The position numbers and the translations under genes were made by a program. Shown here one piece after another: positions 12,985 to 30,445 of a stretch of 64,000 bases of DNA. The notes under the pieces were generated by a model, which was not told the origin of the DNA, made no database searches, and saw nothing but the letters and a program-made list of their open reading frames with translations. Location: positions 26,558 through 90,557 of the forward strand of contig SHUF01000003.1 of the NCBI GenBank assembly GCA_009694745.1. The letters run 5' to 3'. The DNA is from Acidobacteriota bacterium (GTDB taxonomy: Bacteria; Acidobacteriota; Vicinamibacteria; Vicinamibacterales; SCN-69-37). Each line of letters opens with the position of its first letter. Positions within the stretch are counted from its first letter, which is position 1.

Positions 12985-13064
12985 CCAACGGTGGCGTCGG
13001 GCCTGTTTGTGGCTGACAATCCCGCCGCCGATGTGTATCGTTTCGGAGATACTCCAGGGAGTTC

Positions 13065-15482
13065 ATGAAGAAGACTGCATTGACCGCGTTTGTAACCGTG
13101 CTGTTTGGCACGGCCTTCACCTTACGGGCGGGCACGGCCGCGAGCCCGGTTCGCACCGACGCGCCCCTTGGCTTCTCCGTGATGTCTGCGGCGGCGCAGA
13201 ACGACGCCCTGCAAAAGTTCTGCGGCGACTGTCACAACGACATTGACCTGAAGGGCGAGATGTCGCTCGATGGGTTCGACGCGAGACGCGCGGCCGACAA
13301 GGCGGTGTTGGCTGAAAAGGTGGTCAGCAAGTTGCGGACCGGCATGATGCCGCCCAAGGCGCATCCGCAACCGGACGCGGCCACACGAATCGCGCTTGTC
13401 GCCGGGCTCGAGGCCACCCTTGACGCCGCGGCGGTGGCCAACCCCAATCCGGGGCGCCGGCCGTTTCAACGGCTCAATCGCGCGGAGTACGCGGCAGCCG
13501 TGCGCGCGCTGTTCGGGCTGGACCTGGACGTGAGCGCCTACCTGCCGGCCGACACCATCAGCGCCGGCTTCGACAACATCGCTGATGTGCAGATGCCGTC
13601 GGCCACCGTGATGCAGGGGTATCTGCGGGCCGCGGCGCACGTGAGCCGCGTGGCCGTGGGTGACCCGGCCGCGGACCCCACATCAGCCACCTACGACGTC
13701 CCGCGCACCCGGTCGCAGAAGGAACGGCTCGACGGCGCGCCGTTCGGCACACGCGGCGGCACGGTGGTGACCCACAACTTTCCGGCGGACGGCAAATACA
13801 AGTTTCAACTCCTGCTGCATGGGGAGCCGACCGGCGCGCTCTTCGGGCGCACCGTTCGCGCCATCCGGATGGAAGTGGCGATCGACGGTGAACGTGCCGG
13901 CGTGGTGACCGTGGATCGGTGGATTTCGGAATCCGACCCGACCGGCCTGACGGTCTCGACTGAACCCATCTACGTGCGCGCAGGGGCGCGCCGGGTGGCC
14001 GCCACGTTCATTCAGGAGTTCGAAGGTTCGGAAGACGACCTCATCCGGCCGATTGACCACACCCTGGCAGATACCCAGATCGGCGTCGGCTACGGCGTCA
14101 CCACACTGCCCCACCTTCGCAACCTCGCCATCGTCGGCCCGTCGGAAGTGTCGGGTGTTTCCGACAATGCGACGCGGCGGAAGATCTTCTCCTGCCGCCC
14201 GACGGCGCCCAAGGAAGATGTGGCGTGCGCGCGCCGGATTGTTGATCGGCTTGGGACTGAAGCGTATCGCCGGCCATTGACCACAGCTGATGTGGACGAG
14301 CTCATGGCCTTTTATCGCCACGGCGCGGCCACCGACGGGTTTGAGGGCGGGATGCGCACGACGTTGCAAGCGATGCTCGCGAGCCTGCATTTCCTTTTCC
14401 GCGTTGAGGAGGTGCCTGCAGGCGTGGCGTCGGGCGGCATCTACCCGATTGGCGCAGTGGACATGGCCTCACGCCTGTCGTTCTTCCTGTGGGGCACCAT
14501 TCCCGATCGTCCGTTGATCGATGTGGCCCGCACCGGAGCGCTCACGCAGCCCGAGGTGTTCGCCCGTCAAGTGCGTCGCATGCTTGCCGACCCGAAAGCC
14601 GAGGCGCTCGCCACGCGGTTTGCCTCGCAGTACGTCAGGCTGCAGGACCTCGACAAGATCGAGCCCGATGCGCTGGACTACCCCTACTACGACGACACGC
14701 TCGCCGCCGCGATGCATCGCGAAACGGAACTGCTGTTCAACCATCTCGTGCGCGAAGACCGGCCGGTGATGGAAATGCTCACGGCCGACTACACGTTCGT
14801 CAACGAGCGCCTGGCGCGGCACTACGGATTTGGCGGGGTGAGCGGGCCGGAGTTCCGCAAGGTGTTGTATCCCGACGACCTGCGGCGCGGACTGCTGGGC
14901 CATGCGAGCATCCTGACGCTGACATCGCATGGCAACCGGACGTCGCCGGTGCTGCGGGGCAAGTGGGTCATGGAGGTGCTGCTGGGCAGTCCGCCGCCGC
15001 CGCCGCCGCCGAACATCCCTGACCTGGACGAGACGGGTGATGCGGTGGATGGCCGCTTCCTGTCGGTGGCCGAACAACTCGCCATGCATCGGAAGAACCC
15101 GGCGTGCAGTTCGTGCCACAACGTGATCGATCCAATCGGTCTCGCGCTCGACGGTTTTGACGTCACCGGATCATGGCGCATCAAGGACCGCGGCGTGCCG
15201 GTGAACACTGCGGGCGAACTGTATGACGGCACGCCCCTCAAGGGCGTCGCCGATCTGCGCGCAGCGCTCACGGCCCGCTCGGAGGTCGTGGTCACCCATT
15301 TCACCTCAATGCTGATGTCGTACGCGCTGGCTCGCCGCGTGGAGTACTACGACATGCCCGCCGTGCGGCGCATCGTGCGAGACGCCAGGGCTACGGACTA
15401 TCGGTTGTCGTCGCTGATTCTCGGCGTGGCGCGGAGTTCCGCGTTTCGCTCGGCTCGCAAGGAAGCGGTTGTCACGAAGTGA
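13065..15482 (+). CDS. DUF1592/DUF1588/DUF1585-type (PSD/PSCyt) multidomain protein with two CxxCH motifs
   Basis: Signal peptide. CGDCHN near the N terminus and CSSCHNVIDPIGLALDGFD near the C terminus. PPPPPPP linker. Architecture is typical of the Planctomycete/Acidobacteria family that pairs with DUF1552. Confidence 0.75.
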   Translation: MKKTALTAFVTVLFGTAFTLRAGTAASPVRTDAPLGFSVMSAAAQNDALQKFCGDCHNDIDLKGEMSLDGFDARRAADKAVLAEKVVSKLRTGMMPPKAHPQPDAATRIALVAGLEATLDAAAVANPNPGRRPFQRLNRAEYAAAVRALFGLDLDVSAYLPADTISAGFDNIADVQMPSATVMQGYLRAAAHVSRVAVGDPAADPTSATYDVPRTRSQKERLDGAPFGTRGGTVVTHNFPADGKYKFQLLLHGEPTGALFGRTVRAIRMEVAIDGERAGVVTVDRWISESDPTGLTVSTEPIYVRAGARRVAATFIQEFEGSEDDLIRPIDHTLADTQIGVGYGVTTLPHLRNLAIVGPSEVSGVSDNATRRKIFSCRPTAPKEDVACARRIVDRLGTEAYRRPLTTADVDELMAFYRHGAATDGFEGGMRTTLQAMLASLHFLFRVEEVPAGVASGGIYPIGAVDMASRLSFFLWGTIPDRPLIDVARTGALTQPEVFARQVRRMLADPKAEALATRFASQYVRLQDLDKIEPDALDYPYYDDTLAAAMHRETELLFNHLVREDRPVMEMLTADYTFVNERLARHYGFGGVSGPEFRKVLYPDDLRRGLLGHASILTLTSHGNRTSPVLRGKWVMEVLLGSPPPPPPPNIPDLDETGDAVDGRFLSVAEQLAMHRKNPACSSCHNVIDPIGLALDGFDVTGSWRIKDRGVPVNTAGELYDGTPLKGVADLRAALTARSEVVVTHFTSMLMSYALARRVEYYDMPAVRRIVRDARATDYRLSSLILGVARSSAFRSARKEAVVTK

Positions 15483-15492
15483 GGGTTCTGCC

Positions 15493-16902
15493 ATGTATCT
15501 GACCGGAAAACACATCTCGCGCCGCACGGCGTTGCGGGGCCTGGGCGCCACCATCGCGCTGCCGTTGCTCGACTCCATGATCCCCGCGCGCACCGTCTTC
15601 GCCCGCACGGAGGCGGGGCGCCTGGCCGACCGCATGCGACTGGTGTGCATCGAGCAGGTGCATGGGGCCGCTGGTTGCAGCGAAATTGGCGCCGCACAGT
15701 ACTTGTGGAATCCGGCCGAGGTCGGTCGCAAGTTTGACCTGAGCAAAGGCAGCCTGAGTCCGCTTGAGCCGTACCGCGATTACCTGACCATCGTGAGCAA
15801 CACCGACACGCGAATGGCCGAGGCGTTTGCGCCGGCCGAGGTCGGCGGCGATCACTTCAGGTCAAGCGCCGTGATGTTCACCCACGTGCGTCCGAAGCTG
15901 ACCGAAGGGTCGGATGTGCGAGTCGGCACGTCGATGGACCAGCTCTACGTGCAGAAGTTCGGCCAGGACACACCGATCCCGTCGATGCAGCTCAGCATTG
16001 AGCCGGTGGACCAATCCGGCGGCTGCGCCTACGGCTACGCGTGCGTCTACACCGACACCATCAGCTGGGCCGGGCCGGAAGAGCCGCTGCCGATGGTGCG
16101 CGACCCGCGCATGGTGTTTGAGCTGTTGTTCGGCGCCGGCGGCACACCCGAACAGCGCACCATGCGGCGCGCGACGGATCGGAGCATCCTGGATATGCTC
16201 GTGTCGCAGATGGCGGGCCTTCGGCGTGACTTGGGCCCGGCCGACAAGGCGCGGCTCGATCAGTACGCCAGTAATATTCGAGAGATCGAACAGCGCATCC
16301 AGCGCGTCGAAGCGCGCAATGCCAGCGGCGAGACGCGCGAGTTGCCCGGCGCTCCGGCCGGCGTGCCCGACGCGTTTGATGAACACGTCAAGCTGATGTT
16401 CGACCTGCAGCTGCTGGCGTTTACCTCAGACACCACGCGGGTGTTCTCGTTCAAGCTCGGCCGCGACGGTTCAGGCCGCGTGTACCCAGGCAGCGGCATT
16501 GAAACCGGCTTCCACAATGCGTCGCACCACGGCGTGGCCGAGGAACGCATCCGTCAGTTCGCCGAGATCAATAAACACCACGTCTCGATGCTGCCGTACT
16601 TCCTGGAGCGGTTGAAGACCACCATGGAAGGCGACGCGTCGCTGCTCGACAAGACGCTGATCGTGTACGGCTCACCGATGGCGAATGCCAATGTGCACAA
16701 TCACCGGAACTGTCCGCTGATCCTGCTGGGGCGCGGCGGCGGCATCCTCGAAGGCGGCGTGCACCTCAAAGCCGACAGCGGCACGCCCATGGCCAACGTG
16801 ATGCTGGGCCTCATGCACAAGGTGGGACTGGACATGAAGACATTCGGCGATAGCAGCGGCGACTTCTCGTTCACGGCGCCAGGCGCGGTGTCACATGCGT
16901 AG
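15493..16902 (+). CDS. DUF1552 (HXXSHH) family protein with Tat-like signal
   Basis: ATG 15493 with GAGGG RBS. N terminus SRRTALRGLGATIALPLLDSM. Signature FHNASHHG. Confidence 0.75.
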   Translation: MYLTGKHISRRTALRGLGATIALPLLDSMIPARTVFARTEAGRLADRMRLVCIEQVHGAAGCSEIGAAQYLWNPAEVGRKFDLSKGSLSPLEPYRDYLTIVSNTDTRMAEAFAPAEVGGDHFRSSAVMFTHVRPKLTEGSDVRVGTSMDQLYVQKFGQDTPIPSMQLSIEPVDQSGGCAYGYACVYTDTISWAGPEEPLPMVRDPRMVFELLFGAGGTPEQRTMRRATDRSILDMLVSQMAGLRRDLGPADKARLDQYASNIREIEQRIQRVEARNASGETRELPGAPAGVPDAFDEHVKLMFDLQLLAFTSDTTRVFSFKLGRDGSGRVYPGSGIETGFHNASHHGVAEERIRQFAEINKHHVSMLPYFLERLKTTMEGDASLLDKTLIVYGSPMANANVHNHRNCPLILLGRGGGILEGGVHLKADSGTPMANVMLGLMHKVGLDMKTFGDSSGDFSFTAPGAVSHA

Positions 16903-18646
16903 GCTGCGGGTGCTCGCGCTCGTCGGCGCGTTGTCACTGATGCTGGTGGCGGCTGCGCCGGCGCCGGAATCCAGAGTCGCTGACGCGGCGATGAAGGGCG
17001 ACGTGACCACGGTGCGGACGTTGCTCCGCGACGGCGCCGACGTCAACGCGGCCCAGGGCGATGGCATGACCGCGCTCCATTGGGCGGCGCTCAACGGCGA
17101 TATCAAAACGATGGACCTGTTGCTGATTGGCGGGGCCGTCGTGGAGCCACTGACCCGCGTCGGCGGATACACGCCGCTGCATCTGGCGAGTTCGCGCGGA
17201 CATGCGCCGATCGTGGCTCGACTGCTTGAAGCAGGAAGCAAACCGAAGGCGGTCACCGAGACCGGCGTACAGCCCATCCACCTTGCGGCGCAGGCCGGCA
17301 GCGCAGACGCGGTGCGGTTCCTGCTCGATCGCGGAGCCGACGTGAATGCCGTTGACGCGACGCATGGCCGCACGCCTCTGGTGTTTGCGGCCTCGCAAAA
17401 TCGCATCGAGGCCATGCGGATGCTGATCGAGAGGGGCGCGAACAGCGTGTTGACCACGACGGTCATCGATTACGGTCAGCGGTCCCGGGCCGACAGCACC
17501 GCCCGCATGACCCGCGACCGCGTGATCACGGCGACCACGGGACGAACGCCGATGGCGCCGCCACAATTTGACCCGCCGCAGACCGGCAGGGCCGCCACCG
17601 TGGGGCCCGATGGCCAGCTGGCCGCCGACCCTGCGCCAGGACGAGGCGGGCGCGCCGGAGGAGTCGCAGGCGGGCCACGACCCGCCTCCGACATCCAGCA
17701 GATTGGCCGGCAGGGCGGACTCTCGGCGCTGCACTATGCGGCGCGCGACGGGTTTGCCGCCGCAGCGACGATGCTGCTTGATTCGGGTGTGGACGTAAAC
17801 CTGCCGACCGACGGGGACAAGTCAACGCCGATGCTGGTGGCGATCATCAACGGCCACTACGACCTCGCGATGACGTTGCTCAAGCGCGGTGCAAATCCGA
17901 ACCTGGTGAGCGATGACGGCGCGGCGCCACTCTTCGCTCTGGTCAATCACGAGTGGGCGTTGCGCACGTGGTACCCCCAGCCAACGGCCGCGGCCCAGCA
18001 GCGGGCCTCTCACCTCCAGTTGATGGAAGCATTGCTGCAGGCGGGCGCCGATCCCAACGCGCGCACGGGGTCGCACATCTGGTACGCGGCCTACAATGCC
18101 GGGCGCATGGGCGTGGATTACACCGGAGCCACGACCTTCTGGCGCGCGGCGTATTCACTGGACGTGGAAGCGATGCGCTTGCTCGTGCGGCACGGCGCCG
18201 ACCCGAACATCGCGACGATGTCGTACGGCGCCACCGCGCGACAGGGCCTGCCTGCGATGCCGTCAGGCGGCCCGCACGTGCCGCCGTTCCATGCCGCCAG
18301 CGGCGTGGGTTACGGCACCTCGCGCGTAGCCCAGCAGCACCAGCATGTGCCGGATGGCTGGATGCCCGCGGCCAAGTACTTCCTTGAGGAGTTGGGCGTG
18401 GACATCAACGTCCGTGACGCCGACGGATTCACGGCGCTCCACCACGCTGCGGCGCGCGGCGACAACGCGATGATTCTGTACCTCGTGAAGCGGGGCGCGA
18501 ACGTCATGGCCGTGAACCGCAATGGCCAGACCACCGTGGACATGGCCAACAGCCCCGAGCAGCGCACGCAACCCTTCCCCGAGACCATCAAGCTCCTCGA
18601 GGGCATGGGCGCGAAAAACAACAACAACTGCCAGGCCTGCAAGTAG
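16895..18646 (+). CDS. Secreted ankyrin-repeat protein
   Basis: Start overlaps the DUF1552 stop by 8 nt. Signal peptide MRRLRVLALVGALSLMLVAAAPA. Repeated G.TALHWAA..G....LL..GADVNA ankyrin units. Pro/Gly-rich insertion. C-terminal CQACK. Confidence 0.85.
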   Translation: MRRLRVLALVGALSLMLVAAAPAPESRVADAAMKGDVTTVRTLLRDGADVNAAQGDGMTALHWAALNGDIKTMDLLLIGGAVVEPLTRVGGYTPLHLASSRGHAPIVARLLEAGSKPKAVTETGVQPIHLAAQAGSADAVRFLLDRGADVNAVDATHGRTPLVFAASQNRIEAMRMLIERGANSVLTTTVIDYGQRSRADSTARMTRDRVITATTGRTPMAPPQFDPPQTGRAATVGPDGQLAADPAPGRGGRAGGVAGGPRPASDIQQIGRQGGLSALHYAARDGFAAAATMLLDSGVDVNLPTDGDKSTPMLVAIINGHYDLAMTLLKRGANPNLVSDDGAAPLFALVNHEWALRTWYPQPTAAAQQRASHLQLMEALLQAGADPNARTGSHIWYAAYNAGRMGVDYTGATTFWRAAYSLDVEAMRLLVRHGADPNIATMSYGATARQGLPAMPSGGPHVPPFHAASGVGYGTSRVAQQHQHVPDGWMPAAKYFLEELGVDINVRDADGFTALHHAAARGDNAMILYLVKRGANVMAVNRNGQTTVDMANSPEQRTQPFPETIKLLEGMGAKNNNNCQACK

Positions 18647-20355: not shown

Positions 20356-21438
20356 TTATTTCGACAGGGGCCGGCCTGTGCCGTGATACCGGATCTGGGT
20401 GATCTCGGCCAGCACCGACAGGGCAATTTCGGCAGGGGTCCGGCCGCCCAGATCCAGCCCCACAGGAGCGTGAATCGCCCGCAGACGTTCCTCCGGGATG
20501 CCCTCGGCTCGCAGCATTTCGTTGATCAACACAGTCTTGCGGCGGCTGCCGAGCAGCCCGATGTATCTGGCCGGCGTCGTGACCGCCGCCAGCATGCAAT
20601 CGGCGTCGAGCTTGTGTCCGCGCGTGGCGATCACAATGAAACTGTTCCAGCTGTAGTCGATGCCGGCGAGAGTGGCGGGCACGTCCCCCTGCAGGATTGT
20701 CGCGTTCGGAAATCGGGCCGGGTCGGCGAACTCGGGCCGGTCCTCAACCACGGTCACATCAAAATCGAGCATCGCCGCCTGACGGGCGATGGCGAGTGCG
20801 ACGTGGCCGCCGCCGGCGATCACGATGCGCGGCCGGCTGGCGATGGCTTCGATGAGCAGATCTTCGGTCTCCGACTTCACGGTGCGCGCCGTGCCGTGGG
20901 GTATCTGCGCCAGCGCCTCAGCAGTGGCGCGCTGGTCGGCCTCGGCATCGCCGAGCGAACCCAGCCGCCGGCCATCGGCCCGCACCGCAATTCGCCCCAG
21001 GAGTGTCAGGGCGCCCTGCTCTTTGCCGAGCCGTGTCACGAGCGCAACGGGCGCGCCCCCGGCTGCTGCGCCCACCATCTCGGGCAGCAGGTCGATGCCA
21101 TCAAATGCGAGTGCCTGATCGTCGCGCTGCACCAGGATCCACATCGTACCGCCACACACGAGTCCGGTGTTCCATGCCAGGTCTTCAGTCAGCTCGTACG
21201 CACGCAGCGAGTGACCGCCGGACTGGAGAATCCCCTGGGCCGTTTCGATTGCATCAGCCTCGACGCACCCACCGCCGAGAGTGCCTACGGCGGCGCGCAG
21301 GGGCTCGCCGTCACCAAGCACCAGCGTGGCGCCGGCCACCTGCGGCGTGCTGCCGCTTGTGCGCACAACGGTGGCCACCGCAAAACGTCGTCCGGCGGCC
21401 CGGCGCTCCGCCATGCGGCCATAGAGAGAATCCTGCAC
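20356..21438 (-). CDS. XdhC/CoxI family maturation factor
   Basis: FAVATVVRTSGSTPQ N-domain and Rossmann-like IVIAGGGHVALAIA C-domain. GTG 21438 start fits the family N terminus. Alternative start ATG 21414. Confidence 0.8.
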   Translation of the reverse strand: MQDSLYGRMAERRAAGRRFAVATVVRTSGSTPQVAGATLVLGDGEPLRAAVGTLGGGCVEADAIETAQGILQSGGHSLRAYELTEDLAWNTGLVCGGTMWILVQRDDQALAFDGIDLLPEMVGAAAGGAPVALVTRLGKEQGALTLLGRIAVRADGRRLGSLGDAEADQRATAEALAQIPHGTARTVKSETEDLLIEAIASRPRIVIAGGGHVALAIARQAAMLDFDVTVVEDRPEFADPARFPNATILQGDVPATLAGIDYSWNSFIVIATRGHKLDADCMLAAVTTPARYIGLLGSRRKTVLINEMLRAEGIPEERLRAIHAPVGLDLGGRTPAEIALSVLAEITQIRYHGTGRPLSK

Positions 21439-21444
21439 ATCAGG

Positions 21445-21450
21445 ATTCTA
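21445..21450 (-). promoter_or_regulatory. -10-like box TAGAAT, 6 nt upstream of GTG 21438 (leaderless geometry)
   Basis: Minus strand reads gTAGAATcctgatGTGcag. Confidence 0.35.
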
Positions 21451-21541
21451 CTTGCTGCGACCCACGTCCACCTTGGCTGGGATTTCACCCCGTCCATCTC
21501 GGCGAAAGGGGGCTCTGCGGGTTCACAATGGACGTATTGGC

Positions 21542-23107
21542 ATGACCTCTCGGCGTGGCGTTCGGCACCTCCGCGCCCTGGCCGGACTTCCGGCCGCAGT
21601 CACCGCGCTCGTGCTCGTCTACTCGACCATTTTCCACATCCTGATGGCCGCAGAGGAGCGCGCCTACAGCTGGTTTACCGGCGTGTACTGGACGGCTCAG
21701 ACGATGCCGACGCTGGGGTACGGCGACCTCACGTTCACGCGCGATACGGGGCTGGCATTTTCGCTGGTGGTCCTGCTGAGCGGTCTGGTCCTGCTCTTTG
21801 TCCTGCTGCCCTACACGCTCATTCAGTTTTTTTATTCGCCGTGGCTCGAACGGCAGAATGCCGCCCGTACGCCAACGACCATTCCGCACGACATCAGCAA
21901 TCACGTCATCCTCACGGCGTATGGACCCGTCGAAGCCATCCTGATCCAGCGCTTTGATCAGTACGCCATGCCCTATACGGTCATCGTCCCGGACATCGCA
22001 CGCGCCGCATTGGTTGCGACCACGCTGGGCGACGCCGTCAATGCCAACGTCGCGCTCACGGTGCGTGAGTGCTCCAGCACCGTCCCGATCGTGACGACGG
22101 CGGCATTTGAGATGTCGGGCGACCTGCTCAAACAGGCCGGCTGCCAGAACGTGATTCAGCTGGGAGAGTTGCTGGGACGCGCGATAGCCCGCCGGATCAC
22201 GAGCCATGGTGGGCGGCCTCATGTCATCGGCCGGCTGGATGGCCTGGTCATCGCCGAGGCGGCGGTGGCCGGCACCACTCTGGCGGGGCAGACGATTGGC
22301 AATGCCCGAGTGGGCGAGCGCCTGCACGTGAATATCGTCGGTGTCTGGGACAAGGGCGCGTACTCGCCGGGGTTGGCCGGCCTCCTCCTCACTCACGACA
22401 TGACCTTGTTGCTGTCAGGAACCCAGGATGATGTGGACGCGTAAGCCCGCGAATACAGTCTCTCGGCCCCACAGCCGGTCGCCGCCCTCATCGTCGGCGG
22501 CGGACGCGTGGGGCGTGCGACGTCGCGCGCCTTGTCGGCGGATGGCATCGAGCATCAGGTGGTGGAACGGGAACACGTGAAGGTGCCCGACGGGGCGCAC
22601 TGGGTGTTTGGTGATGCCACGGACCCAGAGGTGCTCAACTCGGCGGGCCTCGACACCGCGTCGAGCGTGGCCATCACCACACACGATGACGACCTGAACG
22701 TGTATCTGACGCTCTACTGCCGAGCGAAGCGTCCGGACATCAAGATCTTGAGCCGTTCCACGCACGAGCAGAACGTGGCCACGCTGCGCCTGGCGGGCGC
22801 CAACTTCGTGATGTCGTACGTGCCGATGGAAGCCAACGCCATCTTTGATGTCGTGCGCCACGGCAGCGTGTTGTCGCTCGTGGAGGGGCTGGAGGTGTTC
22901 ACGGTGCGCGTGCCGCGGGAGCTGGCGGGCAGGTCGATCGCCGACTGCAACCTGCGACGCGAGACGGGATGTAACGTGCTGGCAGTCAGGGCGGCCGGCG
23001 GGGCTGCGGCGCCGCCCGACATCCGTGCGTCACTTCGTGCGGACTCCGAACTGGTGCTGATCGGCGACCGCGAAGACGAGCGGCGCTTCTTCGCGCGCTA
23101 CCGCTAG
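21542..23107 (+). pseudogene. K+ channel (TLGYGD pore) with tandem RCK/TrkA domains, split by an in-frame TAA
   Basis: ORFs 21452..22444 and 22508..23107 share one frame. TAA is at 22442..22444. The second Rossmann motif (AALIVGGGRVGRA, 22481..22519) begins upstream of the first possible start (GTG 22508), so the second ORF cannot encode an intact RCK on its own. The first RCK also seems to lack about 30 aa (VIVPDIARAALVATT). Confidence 0.7.
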
Positions 23108-23186: not shown

Positions 23187-23762
23187 CTACACGAGGTCCG
23201 CCGGGCGATCGACGTCGCGGTGTACGCCGGGATCAGGAACATCGATCGTCAGGCACTGCTGGCGGGACCGCTCGTCACTGAGCGTGGACTCCACGGACGC
23301 GAGAAGGATTCGGGCGCGCAGCGCCGTTGAACACACGATCGGGTGCCCGCGGCGGCCGCTGAAGCTGGCGCAGGCCGTCAGGCCGGTACGTCCGGCCGCC
23401 GCGATCACGGCAGCCACGGTGGCTGGCTGCACGTACGGCATATCGCCCGGCAGCAGGACGCAGGCGTCACCCTCCCCGGTCTCGGCGATGCCCGCCTGGA
23501 TGGATGAGAACATACCGCGCGACGGATCGGGATTCACGACCACCGAGATCGGCAGGCCGGCCAGGGCCGCGCGCACAGCCGCTTCCCCATCCGCTGACAC
23601 CACCACCACACAGCGATCGGCGCCGCCCGCCAGCAACGAAGCTACGGTCTGCCGCACCATCGGCTCGCCGTCAACCAACGTCAGGAGCTTGTGCGGCCGC
23701 CCGGGAGCCTCCGCGGCAAATCTGGAACCCGCGCCGGCCGCGGGCACCACCCCAATCGTCAC
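23187..23762 (-). CDS. MocA-like nucleotidyltransferase (NTP_transf_3 family)
   Basis: GTG 23762 overlaps the upstream stop (GTGA). VTIGVVPAAGAGSRF P-loop-like motif, then LLPGDMPYV. The long ORF 23187..24359 is an artificial 5' extension. Confidence 0.75.
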   Translation of the reverse strand: MTIGVVPAAGAGSRFAAEAPGRPHKLLTLVDGEPMVRQTVASLLAGGADRCVVVVSADGEAAVRAALAGLPISVVVNPDPSRGMFSSIQAGIAETGEGDACVLLPGDMPYVQPATVAAVIAAAGRTGLTACASFSGRRGHPIVCSTALRARILLASVESTLSDERSRQQCLTIDVPDPGVHRDVDRPADLV

Positions 23763-24508
23763 AGGTCGTTCTGCCGCGCGAGTGTGCGGGCAATCGAGAC
23801 CGTCCGGTAGATCGCGGTGCCCATCGCGCCGAGGGCAATCAGGGCCACCGCGGCTGTGAGCACACTGCCGGCGGGCCATCCCCATCGCGTCGTCACCGCC
23901 GCATCCGCGAGCGCGGCGAGAGCGAGCAGCACAAGCCGTTCGGCGCGTTGCATGACGCCGCCGGTGCCACTGACGCTGACCGCTTCGCCACGCGCGCGCG
24001 TGTAGCTGACGAGCAGCGAACCGCTGATGGCCAGCACAGAGATCGCAGCGCCCCATGGGGTACTCGAAAGATACCAGGTCACACCCACAAACGAAAATGC
24101 CTCGGCGAACCGGTCGAGCGTGGAGTCCATGAACGCGCCGTAACGGCTGGCCATGCCACGGGCCCGGGCGATGCGGCCATCGAACACGTCTGCCACGCCG
24201 CCAAACAGGATCGCCCAACCCGCAAGCGACAGGGCGCCCTGAGCAAACGCGGCACCAGCGCCTATGCCGAAGGCCACGCCTAGGTAGTTGAAAATGTCTG
24301 GCGAGACCCTGGCGCGAATCATCGCCCGCTCGACGGGGCCAATCACCCACATCAGCCAATCACGGGCCCAGAACCCCAGGAGCACCGTGGACGATCGTCG
24401 CGCCACGTCCGGGTCCCGGGGACGATTCCGGCCGACGATCGCGAACACCGGCATCGTGGCGACCACAACAGCGACAAGCGTCAACGCGAGGGTATCAATC
24501 AGAGTCAC
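23759..24508 (-). CDS. CDP-alcohol phosphatidyltransferase family protein
   Basis: Signature DVFDGRIARARGMASRYGAFMDSTLDRFAE (D-G-x2-A-R...G-x3-D-x3-D). Multiple TM helices. Confidence 0.85.
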   Translation of the reverse strand: MTLIDTLALTLVAVVVATMPVFAIVGRNRPRDPDVARRSSTVLLGFWARDWLMWVIGPVERAMIRARVSPDIFNYLGVAFGIGAGAAFAQGALSLAGWAILFGGVADVFDGRIARARGMASRYGAFMDSTLDRFAEAFSFVGVTWYLSSTPWGAAISVLAISGSLLVSYTRARGEAVSVSGTGGVMQRAERLVLLALAALADAAVTTRWGWPAGSVLTAAVALIALGAMGTAIYRTVSIARTLARQNDL

Positions 24509-25493
24509 GTGGCCTTTGTCGCTGAGGACGATCGCGCAGATAACGGAAGACCCGCGGCCACAGGAAGATGAGCGGCCATCGTTGCTCGCGGGAAGTCAGG
24601 ACCATCTTAGTGCCGCCACTCCGTTCAATCTTCCGCACAATGTAGTCCAGCCAACCCTCGTAGAGTATGACGTGTTTGAGCAGGCGCACCGTGGCGCGCA
24701 CCTTGCTGAGGCGAAAGTACGATCGCACACGCAGGCGATCGACCGCTGAGGCGCGGCCCTGCTGCCGGTAGATGACCGAGGCCCTCGCAAGCGCCCCCTG
24801 GGCCACCAGGTGGTCAAGCAGCGGCGTGTAGATGGCGCACAGGGCGTCTCGCTGGGCGGCCACCAGGGTGCGGGCGTGATCACCGGACTCCGGCCGGGTC
24901 TCACCAGCGAGAGAACGCGACAGCGCGGCCTGGAGAAACTCATCCACAGTGAACGTCTCGGGCAGCGACGGCCGGCTCCAGGCGTAGGTGGCCGCACGGG
25001 CTTCGGCAATGGCATCGCCGATCGCCCGCGCGCTCGCGGCATCCCGCGTCCAGGACAGCAGAACGAACTGGCACAAGCGTCCCTGGACAAAATGGTCGCG
25101 ACGACGGGGCGAACAGGCGCGACGGAAGTCGGCAAGCGAAATCACACAACACTTGGCGCGGGCCGCGCGATCGGTCACTGAAATCACGTTGGGCGCAAGT
25201 ACATGGGCCAGCGCGGTCGCGACCTTCGGCGAATACGACGTGCCGACGGTGGCCGAGAGCGATCGGTAGGCGTCGCCATAACGGTCAACGACCACGAAGA
25301 AGTCGAAGGCGCTGTCGGCTCGTGGCTTGCGGCCCTGGGCCCGGGAGCCGTAGTGAATGATGCCCAGGCTGGAAGGCCCGAACGCCTGGGCCAGAAATGC
25401 GGAAAGCGCCAGGGCGTCGGCCTCGACAGCCTGATCCAGGCCCCACGCGAGCGCGGCGGCCAGGTCCCGGGCGGGCGCGGTTTCAGACGACAT
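24495..25493 (-). CDS. Tam41/Mmp37-like putative phosphatidate cytidylyltransferase
   Basis: From memory of yeast Tam41: IIHYGSRAQG resembles FGYGSGVFEQ; FDFFVVVD resembles IDIILGV; AKCCVISLADF...FVQGRLCQFV resembles VKYGVVSMETL...YLAGRLQKPV; ALSRSLAGETR resembles ALSYAGDIR. Overlaps both neighbours (11 and 14 nt). Confidence 0.5.
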   Translation of the reverse strand: MSSETAPARDLAAALAWGLDQAVEADALALSAFLAQAFGPSSLGIIHYGSRAQGRKPRADSAFDFFVVVDRYGDAYRSLSATVGTSYSPKVATALAHVLAPNVISVTDRAARAKCCVISLADFRRACSPRRRDHFVQGRLCQFVLLSWTRDAASARAIGDAIAEARAATYAWSRPSLPETFTVDEFLQAALSRSLAGETRPESGDHARTLVAAQRDALCAIYTPLLDHLVAQGALARASVIYRQQGRASAVDRLRVRSYFRLSKVRATVRLLKHVILYEGWLDYIVRKIERSGGTKMVLTSREQRWPLIFLWPRVFRYLRDRPQRQRPRDSD

Positions 25494-26328
25494 TGTGAAA
25501 GGGCCGTCCGGCGCGCATGTCTTCCAAGGTCTCGATCATTCGGTTGCGAAGCGATGCCGCGAAATCAGGGATCTCGGATTCCTCCATCGGCGGCTGGAAC
25601 GGCCCGATGATCCGGATGCGAATGCGGGTGCCGGCGGCTTTGGTGAACATGTCGGCCACGGTGCGCATGTGCCACATCCCGTCACCGACGATGCAATAAA
25701 CCGGTAACGGGGCGCGGCCTAGCACCAGGCTGAGGCCTCGAATCATGAACGGGAGAATTGAACCGTCCTTGCTTCGATGGCCCTCGGGGAAGATGAAGAA
25801 TGAAGCCTCCCCGCGTTTGCAACGATCGGCCGCGGCGGCAATCGCCGCGAGGTCGGACCTGAGACTCTGGCGGGTCTGGGCGATCAGGGGAAACCCCGCC
25901 ATCCGGATGAACGGCGAGACACCGGGGAGGCCCCAGGCGTAGCGGCTCCGGGTGGGAATCAGCATCAGGTAGCCCGTGCTGACCCTGTATGCAATAAGGG
26001 CGTCGAGTACCGACTGGTGGTTCATGATGACCACGCGGTTTTCCGGACCGATCGCGCCTTCAATGGAGATGCGGACCCCGGCAATGATTCGGAGCAGGAC
26101 CAGGGGCGCTGCGGCAGAAAAGCGGCTCCAGGGGACCAGAAAACGGGTGGTCTGGACTGGAAATAACCACGCCAGAGGAATTAGGATAAACCTTTGCACA
26201 AATCCCATGAAGAGAATGAGATACGCCAAATAGACCAACACGAAGACCGCGCTCCTCGTCACACGCCAGATACCGCGTGGCACACTGAGTAGCGGGGATT
26301 CGTTCAGGGTCATTCGGGGAAGAGACAT
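25483..26328 (-). CDS. PlsC-like (lyso)lipid acyltransferase
   Basis: Motifs MNHQSVLD and FPEGHRS. N-terminal TM. Start is uncertain: ATG 26328, ATG 26313 or GTG 26382. Confidence 0.8.
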   Translation of the reverse strand: MSLPRMTLNESPLLSVPRGIWRVTRSAVFVLVYLAYLILFMGFVQRFILIPLAWLFPVQTTRFLVPWSRFSAAAPLVLLRIIAGVRISIEGAIGPENRVVIMNHQSVLDALIAYRVSTGYLMLIPTRSRYAWGLPGVSPFIRMAGFPLIAQTRQSLRSDLAAIAAAADRCKRGEASFFIFPEGHRSKDGSILPFMIRGLSLVLGRAPLPVYCIVGDGMWHMRTVADMFTKAAGTRIRIRIIGPFQPPMEESEIPDFAASLRNRMIETLEDMRAGRPFHNVV

Positions 26329-27643
26329 GGCAAACCAATCGGGCGAGGAAAGCGAGACAGCGGACCAACGAGGTGGCGACACCCCGCAGGCCGTTGCGAC
26401 GACAGAGTACGACTACAGCAATTTTTACTATTCATCCAGCGACGACTTGTTCGCCATTTTTGGCCCCTACGACGACTGGTGGTACGGCAGCGCACGCAAC
26501 AGCGGCTATTACCTGTTCTCGCAGCCGATGTCGACGCCCCCTGGCCCCCGCATCAACCTGGAAGAGCAGCTGCACCACGAGACGCTCAAGCTGTTCAACC
26601 TGGCATCGTACAACTACCTCGGCTTGTCCACCCACCCCGAAGTCATCGCGGCGGCCCACGCGGCGCTGGACAAGTACGGGCTAGGCGCGGCAGGCTCGCC
26701 GATTCTCAGTGGCACGATGGACGTCCACCTGACCCTTGAGAAGGAACTGGCGGCCTTCAAGCACAAAGAAGCGGCGATGGTCTTCCCGACCGGGTACAGC
26801 ACGAACGTCGGCCTCCTGTCGGCGCTCATGCGTCCGGGTGACTGGGTGATTCTGGATCAGAACGTCCACGCCAGTATTGTGGACGGCGCGATCCTCGCCA
26901 AGGCCCAGGTGAAGTTCTTCCGGCACAACCAGCCGGCCGACCTCGAGAAGAAGCTGAAGGGCACCACGGGCAAGCGCCTGGTCGTGGTGGAAGGCGTGTA
27001 TTCGATGGACGGCGACATCGCCCGCCTGCCGGAAATGGTCGAAATCTCCAAGCGCGCGGGCGCGCGTATCCTGATCGACGAAGCGCACTCGAGCTTCGTC
27101 TACGGCGCGGAAGGCCGCGGCGTGGTTGAACACTTCGGCCTCGAAGATGAAGTGGACATCCACGTGGGCACCTTCTCAAAGGCGCTCGGTGGCCAGGGTG
27201 GCTACGTCGCGGGCTCGCAGAGCCTCTACAACTACCTGATGGGCTTTGCGCGGTCGCGGGTGTTTTCGTGCGCGTTGTCACCGGCGGTCACCGCCGGCGT
27301 GCTGGCGGCGCTCCGGATTGTGCAACGTGAGCCCCAGTTGCGCCAGCGGCTCTGGGAAAACGTGGCGCACTTCCGCGGGTTGCTGGCCACGGCCGGCGTC
27401 GATGTGGCGGAATCCACGTCGCAGATCATCCCGATCATGATTCGCAACGATCGGAAGATCCTGGGTATCGCGCAGACACTACAGAAGGAAGGGCTGTATC
27501 TGCAGCCCATCATTTTCCCGGCGGTCGCCAAACACCGGTCACGGTTCCGGGTGTCGATTTCGGCAAGCCATTCGACGGCGGATCTCGACCGTGCCGCCGC
27601 CATCCTGATTAAGGTTCTTCGTGAAGAGGAGATCATCAAGTGA
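26327..27643 (+). CDS. Alpha-oxoamine synthase family PLP enzyme (serine palmitoyltransferase / KBL / BioF-like)
   Basis: SYNYLGL, DEAHS, PLP-lysine motif GTFSKALGG. About 90 aa N-terminal region with GYYLFSQP, reminiscent of the YPYF substrate-lid region of Spt-like enzymes. Confidence 0.85.
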   Translation: MANQSGEESETADQRGGDTPQAVATTEYDYSNFYYSSSDDLFAIFGPYDDWWYGSARNSGYYLFSQPMSTPPGPRINLEEQLHHETLKLFNLASYNYLGLSTHPEVIAAAHAALDKYGLGAAGSPILSGTMDVHLTLEKELAAFKHKEAAMVFPTGYSTNVGLLSALMRPGDWVILDQNVHASIVDGAILAKAQVKFFRHNQPADLEKKLKGTTGKRLVVVEGVYSMDGDIARLPEMVEISKRAGARILIDEAHSSFVYGAEGRGVVEHFGLEDEVDIHVGTFSKALGGQGGYVAGSQSLYNYLMGFARSRVFSCALSPAVTAGVLAALRIVQREPQLRQRLWENVAHFRGLLATAGVDVAESTSQIIPIMIRNDRKILGIAQTLQKEGLYLQPIIFPAVAKHRSRFRVSISASHSTADLDRAAAILIKVLREEEIIK

Positions 27644-28332
27644 GCGAGCTGAAGCCCGGACAGGTGCGGTACCTCTACCGCCATGCGATCGGTGGGTTCT
27701 TCGAATTCCCCACTGAGAACGCGCGCAAATTGATCCCGACTTTCATGTCGCCGGTCGAGCCTCATCACGGCCAGAGCGTGTTGTCGGTCATGGCCTTCGA
27801 CTTCAGCGGCAGCTCGGTGGGCGAATACGGCGAACTCGTGTTGTCAGTACCCGTGGCGCCGCGGATTACGCGCGACCAGCCGATGCCGCGCGCGGCGTTT
27901 TTTCCGTTCCTCGTCGGCACCACAACCAAGGCCTCACGTGAACACGCCATCAAGTTGTGGCACCTGCCGCACTTCATGGACGACATCCAGATTGAGTTCG
28001 AAGTCGGCGCGCGCGAAATCACCGTGGCCGCGGCGCACGGCGGCAGCAAGATCCTGGACATGCGGATCACCGACTACGAATGGGAACCGGTGGAGCATTA
28101 CTACCAGGCGTTTGAACACGACGCCACCGGCACCTACATGGCCACGATGGCGATGAACGCGCAGTTCAGCGAAAACGAGGAAGAGCGCGGGTCAATCGAG
28201 ATCTATCCGCACGCCTTCACCGCCGGCCTCAACCCGGATGGCGTCAACGGCACCCCATTTCGCGAATTGTGGATGCGCGACGGCCGCCAGACCTTCGACC
28301 CGCTCGAGACCATCGGCCCAGGCGGGGCGTGA
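27640..28332 (+). CDS. Acetoacetate-decarboxylase-fold (ADC-like) protein, function unknown
   Basis: GTG 27640 overlaps the AOS stop (GTGA). The pattern ARKLIPTFMSPVEPHHGQSVLSVMAFDFSGSSVGEYGELVLSVPV resembles the ADC-family N-terminal block. Confidence 0.45.
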   Translation: MSELKPGQVRYLYRHAIGGFFEFPTENARKLIPTFMSPVEPHHGQSVLSVMAFDFSGSSVGEYGELVLSVPVAPRITRDQPMPRAAFFPFLVGTTTKASREHAIKLWHLPHFMDDIQIEFEVGAREITVAAAHGGSKILDMRITDYEWEPVEHYYQAFEHDATGTYMATMAMNAQFSENEEERGSIEIYPHAFTAGLNPDGVNGTPFRELWMRDGRQTFDPLETIGPGGA

Positions 28333-29231
28333 TGTCCGAACGAGTCTGCGTCATCGTCAATCCGGCCGCCGGCCGGGGGCGAGGCGCCCGGGAACTGCCC
28401 GGCGTTACAGCCGCATTTGCCGCGGTGGGCATCACCGACATTCGCACCACGCAGAAGCGCGAGGACGAACAGGCGATCGCCCGTCGCGCCATCGACGAAG
28501 GCGCCACCACGCTGGTGGCGGTCGGCGGTGACGGCACATGGGGCAACGTGGCCAACGCCATCCTCGGCTCGGGTGCGGGCAGTCAGGTGCGACTGGCGCT
28601 GGTTGCGGCCGGGACGGGCAACGACTTTGCGAAGACGGCCGGCTGCCCGGCCACGGACGCCGCGGCCACGGCCCGGTTCGTGGCCGAAGGCGTCGAGACC
28701 CGCGTGGATGTGGGCCGCATCGAAGATCACTTCTTCCTGAACATCACAGGCTTCGGGTTCGACGTGGCGGTGCTCGAAGACATTCTCAAGATCAAGTGGG
28801 TGAAGGGCGAGGCGCTGTATCTCTACTCGGCGCTGCGCCAGTTAACGTCCTACCCGGGCGTGGAGATCGACGTGGCGTCTGCGGCGAAGCAGCGCGGCTC
28901 GTCGCGGCACCTGATGCTGGTGATCGCGAACGCAAAGATTTTCGGCGGCAAGTTCCGCATCGCCCCTGAGGCATCGCTCACCGACGGTTGCCTCGACGCA
29001 GTGGCCATCCTCGACGCGTCCACGTGGCGCCGCGTGAACCTGTTTGGCGCGGTCGCGCGCGGCACCCATCACGCGCTCAGTGAAGTCATCATCGAACAGG
29101 CGCCGTCGTTTACGGTCCAGTTCTCGGGGCCCCCGGCGTATGAGACCGACGGGGAATACCGCCAGGCGAAAACGGCCGAACTGGAGATCGTGTGCGTACC
29201 TGGCGCACTGCGGCTGGTTGCGCCTGCATGA
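28332..29231 (+). CDS. DAG-kinase-catalytic-domain lipid kinase (YegS/BmrU/sphingosine-kinase-like)
   Basis: ATG shares one base with the upstream TGA. VCVIVNPAAGRGRG, VAVGGDGTWGNV, AAGTGNDFAK. Confidence 0.85.
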   Translation: MSERVCVIVNPAAGRGRGARELPGVTAAFAAVGITDIRTTQKREDEQAIARRAIDEGATTLVAVGGDGTWGNVANAILGSGAGSQVRLALVAAGTGNDFAKTAGCPATDAAATARFVAEGVETRVDVGRIEDHFFLNITGFGFDVAVLEDILKIKWVKGEALYLYSALRQLTSYPGVEIDVASAAKQRGSSRHLMLVIANAKIFGGKFRIAPEASLTDGCLDAVAILDASTWRRVNLFGAVARGTHHALSEVIIEQAPSFTVQFSGPPAYETDGEYRQAKTAELEIVCVPGALRLVAPA

Positions 29232-30445
29232 AAGCCATCAGTTTCGCCGCGCCGATTCCGACGTATCTCGCCACACAGGTCGCCGGAAGACTCTCGGAGC
29301 GCTGGCTCGTCGGACCTCACGCCTGCACACGCTACGCCGACGTCGCCACTCCTGACTTGCCCGGCCAGGATTGGGTGCGCATTCGCACCGTACTCGGCGG
29401 CATCTGCGGCAGCGACCTCGGCATCGTCGCCCTCGAGGCCAGTCCGTCCGCGTCGCCGTTTTCGAGTTTCCCGTTTGTCATCGGACACGAAAACGTCGGA
29501 GTGATCGAAGCCTGCGGCACAGGGGTGCTGGCGTTCGGCGTTGGCGATCGCGTCACAGTGAATCCGCTGCTGTGTTGCGAGCCGAGAGCCGTCACGCCGC
29601 CGTGTGATGCGTGTGCCACGGGCCACCACTCGCGCTGCGCCCACTTCACTGACGGGGCCCTGGCACCGGGGATGTTCATCGGCACCACGCGCGCGCTGGG
29701 CGGCAGCTGGGGCGAGCAATTCGTGGCACACCAGTCGCAGTTGCTTCGCGTGCCCAACGCGGTCAGCGACACCGCTGCCGTCATGACCGAACCTTTTGCG
29801 TGTTGTGTGCATGCGGTCCGCGGCGCCATCCCTGAAGCTGGGCAACACGTGCTGGTGATTGGCGCCGGCACCATGGGCTTGCTGATGGTGGCCGCGCTCA
29901 AGGCGCTGGCGCCCGGCTGCCGGGTTACGGCGCTGGCGCGACATCCCTTTCAAGCGCGTCATGCCGAACAGCTCGGCGCGACCCGAACGGTGATGGCGGG
30001 GGGCGACTACCTCGGCGAACTCGCCGAAGTGGCCGGCACGCGGCTCCTGAAGCCCATCCTGGGCCGGCCCATCGGCATCGGCGGGTTTGATGCCGTGTTT
30101 GTGTGCATCAGCAGCGCCCGCGGCGTGGAAGACGCGATGCGCTTCGCGCGCGCCGGCGCAACGATCGTTCTGCTTGGCAACGCGACCACACTGCGCGGCC
30201 TCGACTGGACGCCCCTATGGATCAAGGAACTGACGTTCCGCGGCACGCTGGCGTACGGCAGTCACGGACACGGCGGCGCCAGCGTCAATGCGTTCAACGA
30301 AGCCGCCGCGCTCATCGCCGAAGGCCGGGCGCCCATTGGCGGCCTGGTCACTCACCAGTTTCCGCTCGCGAAGTACCAGGACGCGCTTCAAATGGCGCGC
30401 GCCAAAGGCTCCGGCGAAAGCGTCAAAGTCGCGTTCCGGTTTTAG
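29228..30445 (+). CDS. Zn-dependent medium-chain dehydrogenase/reductase
   Basis: ATGA overlap with the kinase gene. [14 protein letters not shown], Cys-rich structural-Zn loop [12 protein letters not shown], Rossmann [11 protein letters not shown]. Confidence 0.85.

Follow-up and report, generated by a model that had tools for sequence, protein, structure and literature searches.

A seven-gene cluster of Vicinamibacterales and Gemmatimonadota with a predicted phosphosphingolipid-type product, related to the Caulobacter ceramide phosphoglycerate system

Bacterial sphingolipids are known from few lineages, and one enzyme set for making them (Spt, bCerS, and CerR) has been characterized; this canonical ceramide pathway was reportedly set out by Stankeviciute et al. 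in 2022. In Caulobacter, the genes CC_1158 to CC_1165 lie in the order phosphoesterase, CpgA, CpgB, CpgC, Spt, AcpR, CerR, and AasR (PMC11324152). CpgB is a proven ceramide kinase (PMC10331486), and CpgC is genetically needed for ceramide-1-phosphate to be turned into ceramide phosphoglycerate (PMC9393093). CpgC (CC_1161) carries the annotation IPR015222 (Tam41) and has been proposed as the maker of an NDP-activated ceramide (PMC11324152, S1 Text), and the step after ceramide-1-phosphate is still termed "unidentified" in papers of 2025-2026. Here, we analyzed a stretch of 64,000 nucleotides from an Acidobacteriota bacterium of the Vicinamibacterales (GCA_009694745.1, contig SHUF01000003.1, positions 26,558 to 90,557 of the forward strand), referred to below as the window, in which two divergent operons at 23187 to 30445 hold a set of predicted lipid genes related to those of Caulobacter.

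We put at roughly 0.55 the probability that this cluster works as two modules to make a phosphosphingolipid or a long-chain amino-alcohol phospholipid much like one. The estimate draws on what was established here, namely the gene families and folds, the co-conservation of the genes, their fusions, and a remote homology with the CpgC-position proteins of Caulobacter-type clusters; from these, we infer all of the substrates, which of the kinase and the acyltransferase acts first, the identity of the head group, and a CDP-lipid as the intermediate. The features of the locus are as follows (aa, amino acids; ORF, open reading frame).

26327-27643, plus strand: alpha-oxoamine synthase (AOS), serine palmitoyltransferase (SPT)-like (PF00155; 438 aa)
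27640-28332, plus strand: ADC-fold protein (PF06314 below threshold, and fold search; 230 aa)
28332-29231, plus strand: lipid kinase (DAGK) of the YegS/BmrU/DgkB type (PF00781 and PF19279, YegS_C; 299 aa)
29228-30445, plus strand: Zn-dependent medium-chain dehydrogenase (Zn-ADH), putative 3-keto reductase (PF08240 and PF00107; 405 aa)
26263-26326, no strand: divergent intergenic region in which both promoters are expected (start-codon survey)
25483-26262, minus strand: PlsC-like acyltransferase (PF01553; about 259 aa; ORF open to 26382)
24495-25493, minus strand: Tam41-like nucleotidyltransferase (Tam41 fold, CpgC family), putative CTP:lipid-phosphate cytidylyltransferase (332 aa)
23759-24508, minus strand: CDP-alcohol phosphatidyltransferase (CDPOH), similar to phosphatidylinositol phosphate (PIP) synthases (PF01066; 249 aa)
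23187-23762, minus strand: MobA/MocA-like NTP transferase (NTP_transf_3) (PF12804; 191 aa)

An ORF and start-codon survey reproduced exactly the layout given by a sequence-only reading of this DNA, that is, eight ORFs in two back-to-back operons, with overlaps of 11, 14, and 4 nucleotides in the minus operon and of 4, 1, and 4 nucleotides in the plus operon. Third-position GC was high in all eight ORFs, as is typical of genuine genes. When the PlsC gene is started at the GTG at 26262, the divergent starts are 64 bp apart, and the same start was called in an 81%-identical relative, whose gene calls agree with this layout; with upstream ATGs the distance is at most 13 bp, and it is 10 bp at another related locus. 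No sigma-70 consensus was found in 26263 to 26326, and Rfam, promoter, and terminator scans were uninformative. The eight family assignments of the sequence-only reading all hold, six directly by Pfam and those of the ADC-fold and Tam41-like proteins by fold search: among the hidden Markov models run, PF00155, PF00781, PF08240/PF00107, PF01553, PF01066, and PF12804 matched, PF06314 stayed below threshold, and PF09139 gave no match.

Below, T41 stands for the Tam41-like gene, and labels of the form L### and P### denote loci and protein representatives, respectively. A T41-family profile retrieved 64 loci from one-genome-per-species collections; 38 had sufficient flank on both sides, and their neighbors were identified by tblastn with the window proteins. 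The CDPOH gene was adjacent to T41 at all 38 species loci, the PlsC, AOS, ADC, and DAGK genes at 30 each, the ADH gene at 26, and the NTP transferase gene at 4. Reciprocally, the ADC-fold protein was used as the anchor in metagenome contigs, with at least 459 confirmed ADC-fold relatives; among the matches listed, AOS was present at 23 of 23 loci, PlsC, T41, and CDPOH at 20 of 23 each, DAGK at 44 of 44, and ADH at 41 of 44. Linkage of the two operons amounted to 80 to 87% in either direction, held in two phyla, and persisted where the Tam41-like proteins were as little as about 40% identical. At two Acidobacteriota loci (L058 and L060), AOS-ADC-DAGK-PlsC-T41-CDPOH is a single operon read in one direction. 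These results indicated that the two-operon arrangement is far beyond chance, recurring dozens of times among species-level genomes and metagenome contigs, and bore out the expectation that both operons are co-conserved in relatives. The eight-gene unit of the sequence-only reading did not stand: because the NTP transferase is not co-conserved, the conserved unit is seven genes across Vicinamibacterales and Gemmatimonadota.

Most of the 64 T41 loci are labeled Vicinamibacterales/Acidobacteriota or Gemmatimonadota, and a few bear Acidimicrobiia or Solibacteraceae labels. Near-identical clusters were seen at L010, L016, L063, L005, L009, L012, L014, and L017, in metagenome-assembled genomes (MAGs) labeled Acidimicrobiia or "Solibacteraceae," with a T41 about 57 to 77% identical to that of the window. 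MAGs so labeled rank among Vicinamibacterales in the T41 identity list, and these carriers probably result from wrong binning or imprecise taxonomic labels, and not from horizontal transfer.

The protein encoded at 24495 to 25493 is identical to NCBI EXQ49_01475, annotated as a hypothetical protein, and had no Pfam, NCBIfam, or PDB sequence match, even as a 22-sequence profile. In a Foldseek search with its AlphaFold model (pLDDT 87.7), the five best PDB matches were all Tam41 (6ig4, 7ecd, and 6ig2; E values of 4e-8 to 9e-7 and TM scores of 0.51 to 0.66), including the CTP-Mg complex of a bacterial Tam41, and every other nucleotidyltransferase had a TM score of <0.36. The list was headed by 6ig4 and 7ecd (E values of 4e-8 to 1e-7 and TM scores of 0.52 to 0.66). 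The protein also shows a YGS...D strand motif, which we take to be the one found in Tam41. Among relatives of the family, PF09139 gave 29 bits for P0132 (gathering score, 24), 20 bits for P0159, and a "weak" match for a homologue from Arhodomonas. Judged by the modeled structure, this is a Tam41-fold protein with putative cytidylyltransferase activity; the earlier call of "Tam41-like" is upheld by the predicted fold and finds no match at the sequence level.

Further evidence came from gene fusions. A T41 profile search of 1.84 billion representatives yielded 1108 matches at E<=1e-3, a large superfamily in which T41 is fused to PlsC in five representatives (P0122, P0128, P0131, P0132, and P0137), to CDP-OH_P_transf in P0159, and to NTP_transf_3 in P0189, and a fusion to cytochrome P450 is also present; P0122 lies in an otherwise identical seven-gene cluster. 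Fusions of T41 to its flanking enzymes are expected if the PlsC product feeds T41 and the T41 product feeds CDPOH. A T41 that is translationally coupled to a PlsC-type gene upstream and to CDPOH downstream, and is fused to such partners elsewhere, has the signature expected of a maker of a CDP-activated lipid.

Two of the fusion loci have other surroundings. At L157:195-9031 (Logan SRR20069371 contig), the genes that flank the one for the 1152-aa T41-cytochrome P450 protein encode two B12-binding radical-SAM enzymes, a methyltransferase of the PEMT type, a kinase of the YegS type, and a short CDP-alcohol transferase; this gene content suggests another unusual-lipid cluster built around a trio of kinase, Tam41-like protein, and CDP-alcohol transferase. 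At L075:5579-10115 (JGI 3300022562 contig), P0189 (594 aa) is encoded beside a ketoacyl synthase and a protein of the polyketide cyclase/START kind, as well as a methyltransferase, a flavin reductase, and an FAD monooxygenase, a context that appears polyketide- or lipid-like and is unlike that of the window.

A tie to described sphingolipid clusters emerged when the Tam41-like protein was compared with plasmids by tblastn, which gave weak matches in Pseudomonas and Roseomonas. On the Roseomonas replicon (L068), the T41 homologue has a gene of the diacylglycerol kinase family on one side and, on the other, a pyridoxal phosphate "aminotransferase" gene followed by an acyl carrier protein (ACP) gene; genes for a metallophosphoesterase, a CDP-alcohol phosphatidyltransferase, and paralogues of LptF/G lie alongside. 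In Arhodomonas aquaeolei, a cultured gammaproteobacterium, the homologue comes after genes for an AMP-binding protein (AasR-like), an epimerase (CerR-like), an ACP, and Spt. The gene order in these clusters matches that published for Caulobacter, and hhalign of the window T41 family against the Roseomonas CpgC-position protein gave a probability of 99.2% (E value of 1.6e-19 over 263 columns). By this profile comparison, the Tam41-like protein is a remote homologue of the CpgC-position proteins in Caulobacter-type clusters, and by its context its lipid substrate is probably not phosphatidic acid (PA). The sequence-only reading had named no described system with this gene combination, a statement that cannot be kept, since Caulobacter spt-cpgABCD has the core combination (PMC11324152).

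At the start of the plus operon, the AOS matched PF00155 with 197 bits, and its TFSK, HAS, and DEAHS motifs align with those of SPT 3a2b. This SPT, from Sphingobacterium multivorum, was also its best PDB match (300 bits, versus 221 to 237 for KBLs, 258 for ThAOS, the promiscuous AOS of Thermus, and about 188 for BioF), and identity of the AOS to the Spt encoded in a Caulobacter-type cluster is 40%. The AOS fell under every NCBIfam equivalog cut-off, those of the KBL models included (352 versus 460 and 304 versus 493). A neighbor-joining tree was built from 16 cluster AOS sequences together with three SPTs (two read from PDB alignments), the Arhodomonas-cluster SPT, ThAOS, and the E. coli KBL and BioF. 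In it, the cluster AOS clade grouped with the S. multivorum SPT (bootstrap 100) inside an SPT super-clade (63), and KBL and ThAOS were separate (86). Tested against Spt, KBL, and BioF in this way, the AOS is SPT-like and not KBL; it is most likely an enzyme of the SPT type and is predicted to use serine and a long-chain acyl substrate. The part of the AOS that aligns with SPT, KBL, and BioF is preceded by about 40 aa in which Tyr, Phe, and Trp are unusually frequent (YDYSNFYYSSSDDLFAIFGPYDDWWYGSARNSGYYLF; residues 1-85 = 26327-26580), and this N-terminal extension may be a membrane-interface or partner-binding segment.

The ADC gene lay directly 3' of the AOS gene at 23 of 23 ADC-anchored loci among the matches listed. 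Its product scored 27.8 bits with PF06314 (gathering score, 29.8), and a profile of its family had no match among PDB sequences. Foldseek with its AlphaFold2 model (pLDDT 93.4) recovered ADC, MppR, Sbi00515, and Swit_4259 only (TM scores of 0.60 to 0.67), and all 24 PDB matches with E <= 0.001 are ADC-superfamily structures. ADC, MppR, and Sbi00515 use a Schiff-base lysine. An alignment of 21 homologues contained no invariant or nearly invariant lysine, and a role as a classical Schiff-base decarboxylase was rejected on this ground; the mechanism would therefore be unlike that of the known ADC-superfamily enzymes. Invariant in the family are a WHLPH motif and H42, H43, H153, E22, E40, D54, E65, R100, E178, R208, and E209. 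This protein is the least understood part of the cluster; it may be an auxiliary enzyme that acts on the amino-ketone, or else an acyltransferase or a lipid chaperone.

The presence of a beta-keto-acid decarboxylase fold directly after an AOS raises the thought that the plus operon supplies a head group. Here, a KBL-like condensation of glycine with acetyl-CoA and decarboxylation by the ADC-fold protein would give aminoacetone and then 1-amino-2-propanol, which the CDPOH would place on CDP-diacylglycerol (CDP-DAG). The AOS and Zn-dehydrogenase do form a KBL-TDH pair in outline, and the AOS scores alike on BioF, KBL, and SPT models. Against this stand the clade that the AOS forms with SPT, away from KBL, the wide margins by which the KBL and TDH equivalog cut-offs were missed, the ADC-fold family's lack of a conserved Schiff-base lysine, and the membership of the kinase in a lipid-kinase family. 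In addition, 2-amino-3-ketobutyrate decarboxylates spontaneously, which likewise counts against an aminopropanol head group, and we consider this explanation very unlikely.

The kinase exceeded the TIGR00147 cut-off (127.2 versus 118.65), has both a DAGK_cat and a YegS_C domain, and keeps the GGDG motif; its best PDB match was DgkB (2qv7). With the Roseomonas CpgB-position kinase, the GGDG region alone aligned (E value of 0.016), and with the Pseudomonas plasmid kinase about 105 N-terminal residues did (E value of 5e-7). The Zn-ADH shows Cys/His/Glu and Cys-rich Zn motifs. Tested against threonine dehydrogenase, it proved not to be Tdh, with 103 versus 458 and 98 versus 380 bits on the tdh models and 26% identity to E. 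coli Tdh. At the level of families, the AOS and the Zn-ADH resemble Kbl and Tdh, as would befit threonine catabolism placed beside phospholipid genes by chance. We rejected this possibility, to which we attach next to no credence, on the equivalog scores of both enzymes, the identity to Tdh, and the tree, which splits the AOS from KBL; moreover, the ADC-fold and DAGK genes always lie between the pair, and the linkage to the lipid operon is strong.

The two enzymes on either side of T41 also have recognizable families. The PlsC-like protein matched PF01553 with 44 bits and did not reach the TIGR00530 cut-off (30 versus 103); 39 homologues all keep its NHQSxxD (HX4D) and FPEGxR motifs without change, and in AGPATs the FPEGxR motif binds the phosphate of lyso-lipid acceptors. 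The CDPOH matched PF01066 with 47 bits and has the full Dx2DGx2ARx8Gx3Dx3D motif, which reads ADVFDGRIARARGMASRYGAFMDSTLDR. Its best NCBIfam models were archaetidylinositol-phosphate and PIP synthases, all below cut-off (121 versus 180, 117 versus 350, and 109 versus 170), and its best PDB match was Mycobacterium tuberculosis PgsA1 (6h53). At one locus whose cluster is the same but for the fusion of PlsC and T41 (L074:761-2793, JGI 3300031965 contig), genes for a Lip_A_acyltrans-family acyltransferase and a GT4 glycosyltransferase lie beyond the ADH end. By analogy, these neighbors of the PatA and PimA families, seen at this one locus only, hint at a further-glycosylated inositol head group.

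The best NCBIfam models for the eighth gene were DVU_1551 and MocA (TIGR03310, 89.9 versus a cut-off of 186), and its best PDB matches were the nucleotidyl transferase 6plj, followed by the MocA-related 2we9. XdhC is the usual partner of MocA, and an XdhC/CoxI-family gene lies at 20356 to 21447 on the minus strand, 1.7 kb from the MocA-like gene; a potassium-channel/TrkA two-gene unit at 21425 to 23107 on the plus strand separates the two. From their families and positions, the XdhC and MocA-like genes look like a split molybdoenzyme-maturation pair, the MocA half of which overlaps the lipid operon by 4 nucleotides, and the MocA-like gene is probably co-transcribed by position and not part of the lipid unit. 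It might instead join the pathway in this lineage and supply a precursor of the head group in CDP- or NDP-activated form, the part played in Caulobacter by CpgD and CC_1153: the 4-nucleotide overlap is with the CDPOH gene, the Caulobacter head group requires the IMPCT-like CpgD and the MobA-like CC_1153, and an NTP_transf_3-T41 fusion exists in P0189. We regard such a role as unlikely. The four species loci at which this gene is adjacent belong to the nearest relatives only, it is displaced by two genes at L006, its best matches are the MocA-type models and structures given above, with XdhC close by, and it resembles none of the nucleotidyltransferases encoded in the proteobacterial clusters and matches P0189 over 27 residues only.

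If the cluster makes a phosphosphingolipid, the following steps can be proposed. The SPT-like AOS would join an amino acid, most likely serine, to a fatty acyl thioester to form a 3-keto long-chain base, the Zn-dehydrogenase would reduce the ketone of this base to the alcohol, and the YegS-type kinase would put a phosphate onto the C1 hydroxyl, giving a long-chain base 1-phosphate; the ADC-fold protein would have an auxiliary or catalytic part in this backbone module. The plus operon contains no acyltransferase gene and can stand alone, and it would yield a phosphorylated long-chain base. The minus operon parallels PlsC, CdsA, and PgsA of the Kennedy CDP-DAG route. Its PlsC-type enzyme would add a second chain to a lyso-lipid phosphate, that is, N-acylate the base 1-phosphate, which is structurally analogous to lysophosphatidic acid (LPA), in a counterpart of the step from LPA to PA, the Tam41-fold enzyme would transfer CMP from CTP to form a CDP-ceramide-type intermediate, and the PIP-synthase-like CDPOH would place the ceramide-phosphate on a polar alcohol, which might be inositol phosphate. 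In an alternative order, ceramide would be formed first and the ceramide kinase step would come after. The sequence-only reading had put the steps as amino-ketone, amino-alcohol, acylation, phosphorylation, and CMP activation or head-group transfer; this fits all of the evidence found, and it is a scheme that we infer. The stricter proposal, a complete sphingolipid copy of the Kennedy pathway in which the base is phosphorylated, then N-acylated by a PlsC paralogue, turned into CDP-ceramide by the Tam41-fold enzyme, and given its head group by a PIP-synthase-like enzyme, is put forward tentatively, as a possible but doubtful case.

Several points weigh against a phosphosphingolipid product. No enzyme activity or lipid product is established for any member of the cluster, and the carriers in the genome scan are all uncultured, none being a named cultured species and nearly all being MAGs (one record is not). 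The AOS lies under every SPT equivalog cut-off (NF047600, 365 versus 640; NF047599, 346 versus 500; NF047603, 279 versus 670), and its tree has few references and is neighbor-joining only. By its sequence, the kinase is of the YegS/DgkB type and not of the CpgB type. The CpgC-position proteins are tied to Caulobacter CCNA_01219 (CC_1161) by gene order and annotation; Caulobacter CpgC was absent from the best 120 homologues of the Roseomonas protein, all of which are from Acetobacteraceae or Azospirillum. No inositol-phosphate synthase gene was found in the window ORFs scanned, which left out a few large distant ORFs, and no head-group phosphatase gene was found in the window ORFs scanned. PlsC, Tam41, and PIP synthase belong to families classically tied to glycerolipids, and the minus operon alone could make phosphatidylinositol phosphate. 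Finally, the modules are separable. Eight T41-CDPOH loci (8 of 41) are without the AOS operon; at three of them, L033, L038, and L051, the pair has an OleD-like reductase gene, a second PlsC gene, or both beside it. Conversely, three loci on JGI metagenome contigs (L092, L096, and L112) have the plus operon without PlsC-T41-CDPOH.

Such observations would suit two separate units, the minus operon being a glycerolipid route from LPA through PA and CDP-DAG to PIP and the plus operon making an unrelated amino-lipid or metabolite with an ordinary diacylglycerol kinase. The three minus-operon families are canonical glycerolipid enzymes with a CDPOH closest to PIP synthases, each module occurs by itself at the loci just given, and the PatA-like and PimA-like genes near one locus are arranged as in the mycobacterial PIM operon. 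We nevertheless hold this explanation to be improbable, in view of the two-way linkage, which spans two phyla and reaches down to 40% identity, the single co-directional operon at L058 and L060, and the T41 relatives in proteobacterial sphingolipid clusters, of which the one in Caulobacter works on ceramide phosphate and not on PA. The presence of dedicated PlsC and CdsA paralogues would also suggest a non-standard substrate.

The surroundings of the single modules were recorded as well. At L092, L096, and L112, AOS-ADC-DAGK(-ADH) lies beside genes for a DegT aminotransferase, a UDP-sugar dehydrogenase, and an epimerase, a BamD-like gene (L092), or a GT4 glycosyltransferase gene (L096). At the Gemmatimonadaceae loci L033, L038, and L051, T41-CDPOH is followed by an OleD-like (2-alkyl-3-oxoalkanoate reductase-type) reductase of the 3beta-HSD family and a convergent PlsC-type acyltransferase, and the arrangement adjoins the housekeeping genes ruvB, queA, tgt, yajC, def, and fmt. 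Here, the same head-group module may serve another lipid backbone. An aminotransferase beside this type of arrangement was considered as a hidden AOS and rejected, being of the methionine/aspartate type. Elsewhere in the window, 13017 to 18646 on the plus strand encodes a DUF1592/DUF1588/DUF1585/DUF1595/DUF1587 "PSD/PSCyt" protein, a DUF1552 (HXXSHH) protein, and then a 600-aa protein consisting almost wholly of ankyrin repeats, a trio that is syntenic in the 81%-identical relative.

The cluster suggests an enzyme set for sphingolipids other than the characterized one, and suggests as its carriers two soil-abundant, mostly uncultured phyla. Our literature searches found the term "CDP-ceramide" in no paper, no paper on this gene combination, and no report of sphingolipids in the Acidobacteria and Gemmatimonadota phyla that carry the cluster. 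If the cluster indeed encodes the complete sphingolipid copy of the Kennedy pathway proposed above, Vicinamibacterales and Gemmatimonadota would be sphingolipid producers, and a Zn-dehydrogenase, a PlsC-type N-acyltransferase, and a lysine-less ADC-fold enzyme would make up a further independent invention of bacterial ceramide synthesis. A mechanism would then also be assigned to Caulobacter CpgC, through CDP-ceramide, which is not known to have been demonstrated in nature. The trio of kinase, Tam41-like protein, and CDP-alcohol transferase recurs with other backbone genes and may be a general phospho-head-group module for unusual lipid alcohols.

Several known systems share single traits with the cluster. 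Like Kbl-Tdh, it has an AOS-family enzyme and a Zn-dependent MDR dehydrogenase in one operon; it differs in the two genes between the pair, in its linkage to membrane-lipid genes, and in failing the equivalogs and the tree. Actinobacterial and archaeal PIP synthases (PgsA1, of the mycobacterial pgsA1-patA-pimA operon) are the closest CDPOH models and structures, with the complete motif in common, and the likeness to this operon extends to the PatA- and PimA-family genes of L074; the window CDPOH differs in its sub-cut-off scores and probably in its donor lipid. The mitochondrial CDP-DAG synthase Tam41/TAMM41 (PF09139; 6ig4 and 7ecd) is the sole convincing structural match to the window protein, which is 12 to 15% identical to it and has a different C-terminus that is highly conserved, basic, and hydrophobic. 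With the Spt/bCerS/CerR pathway, the cluster shares a start by Spt-type condensation and the need for one reduction and one N-acylation, but the enzymes come from unrelated families, the reductase being a Zn-MDR rather than an SDR protein and the acyltransferase PlsC-type rather than GNAT.

The closest likeness is to Caulobacter spt-cpgABCD (CC_1152 to CC_1168), which makes ceramide (di)phosphoglycerate and, like the present cluster, combines Spt, a DAGK-superfamily kinase (CpgB), a Tam41-domain protein (CpgC), and a CDP-alcohol transferase (CpgA). The present cluster is without bCerS (GNAT), CerR (SDR), AcpR, AasR, and the Lpt paralogues; GNAT, SDR/epimerase, ACP, and acyl-ACP synthetase genes were found neither among the eight genes nor among their neighbors, whereas they are present in the proteobacterial comparators. 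In their place, the cluster has a Zn-MDR dehydrogenase, a PlsC-type acyltransferase, an ADC-fold protein, and a YegS/DgkB-type kinase. The CpgA-position proteins of Caulobacter-type clusters have only the superfamily core in common with the window CDPOH, which is short and translationally coupled to T41, and the two clusters belong to different phyla. Judged by these families, what appears new relative to the known phosphosphingolipid clusters is the other types of reductase, acyltransferase, and kinase, the ADC-fold component, and the tightly coupled head-group transferase. Although related to the Caulobacter system, itself only partly understood, the cluster is clearly distinct from it.

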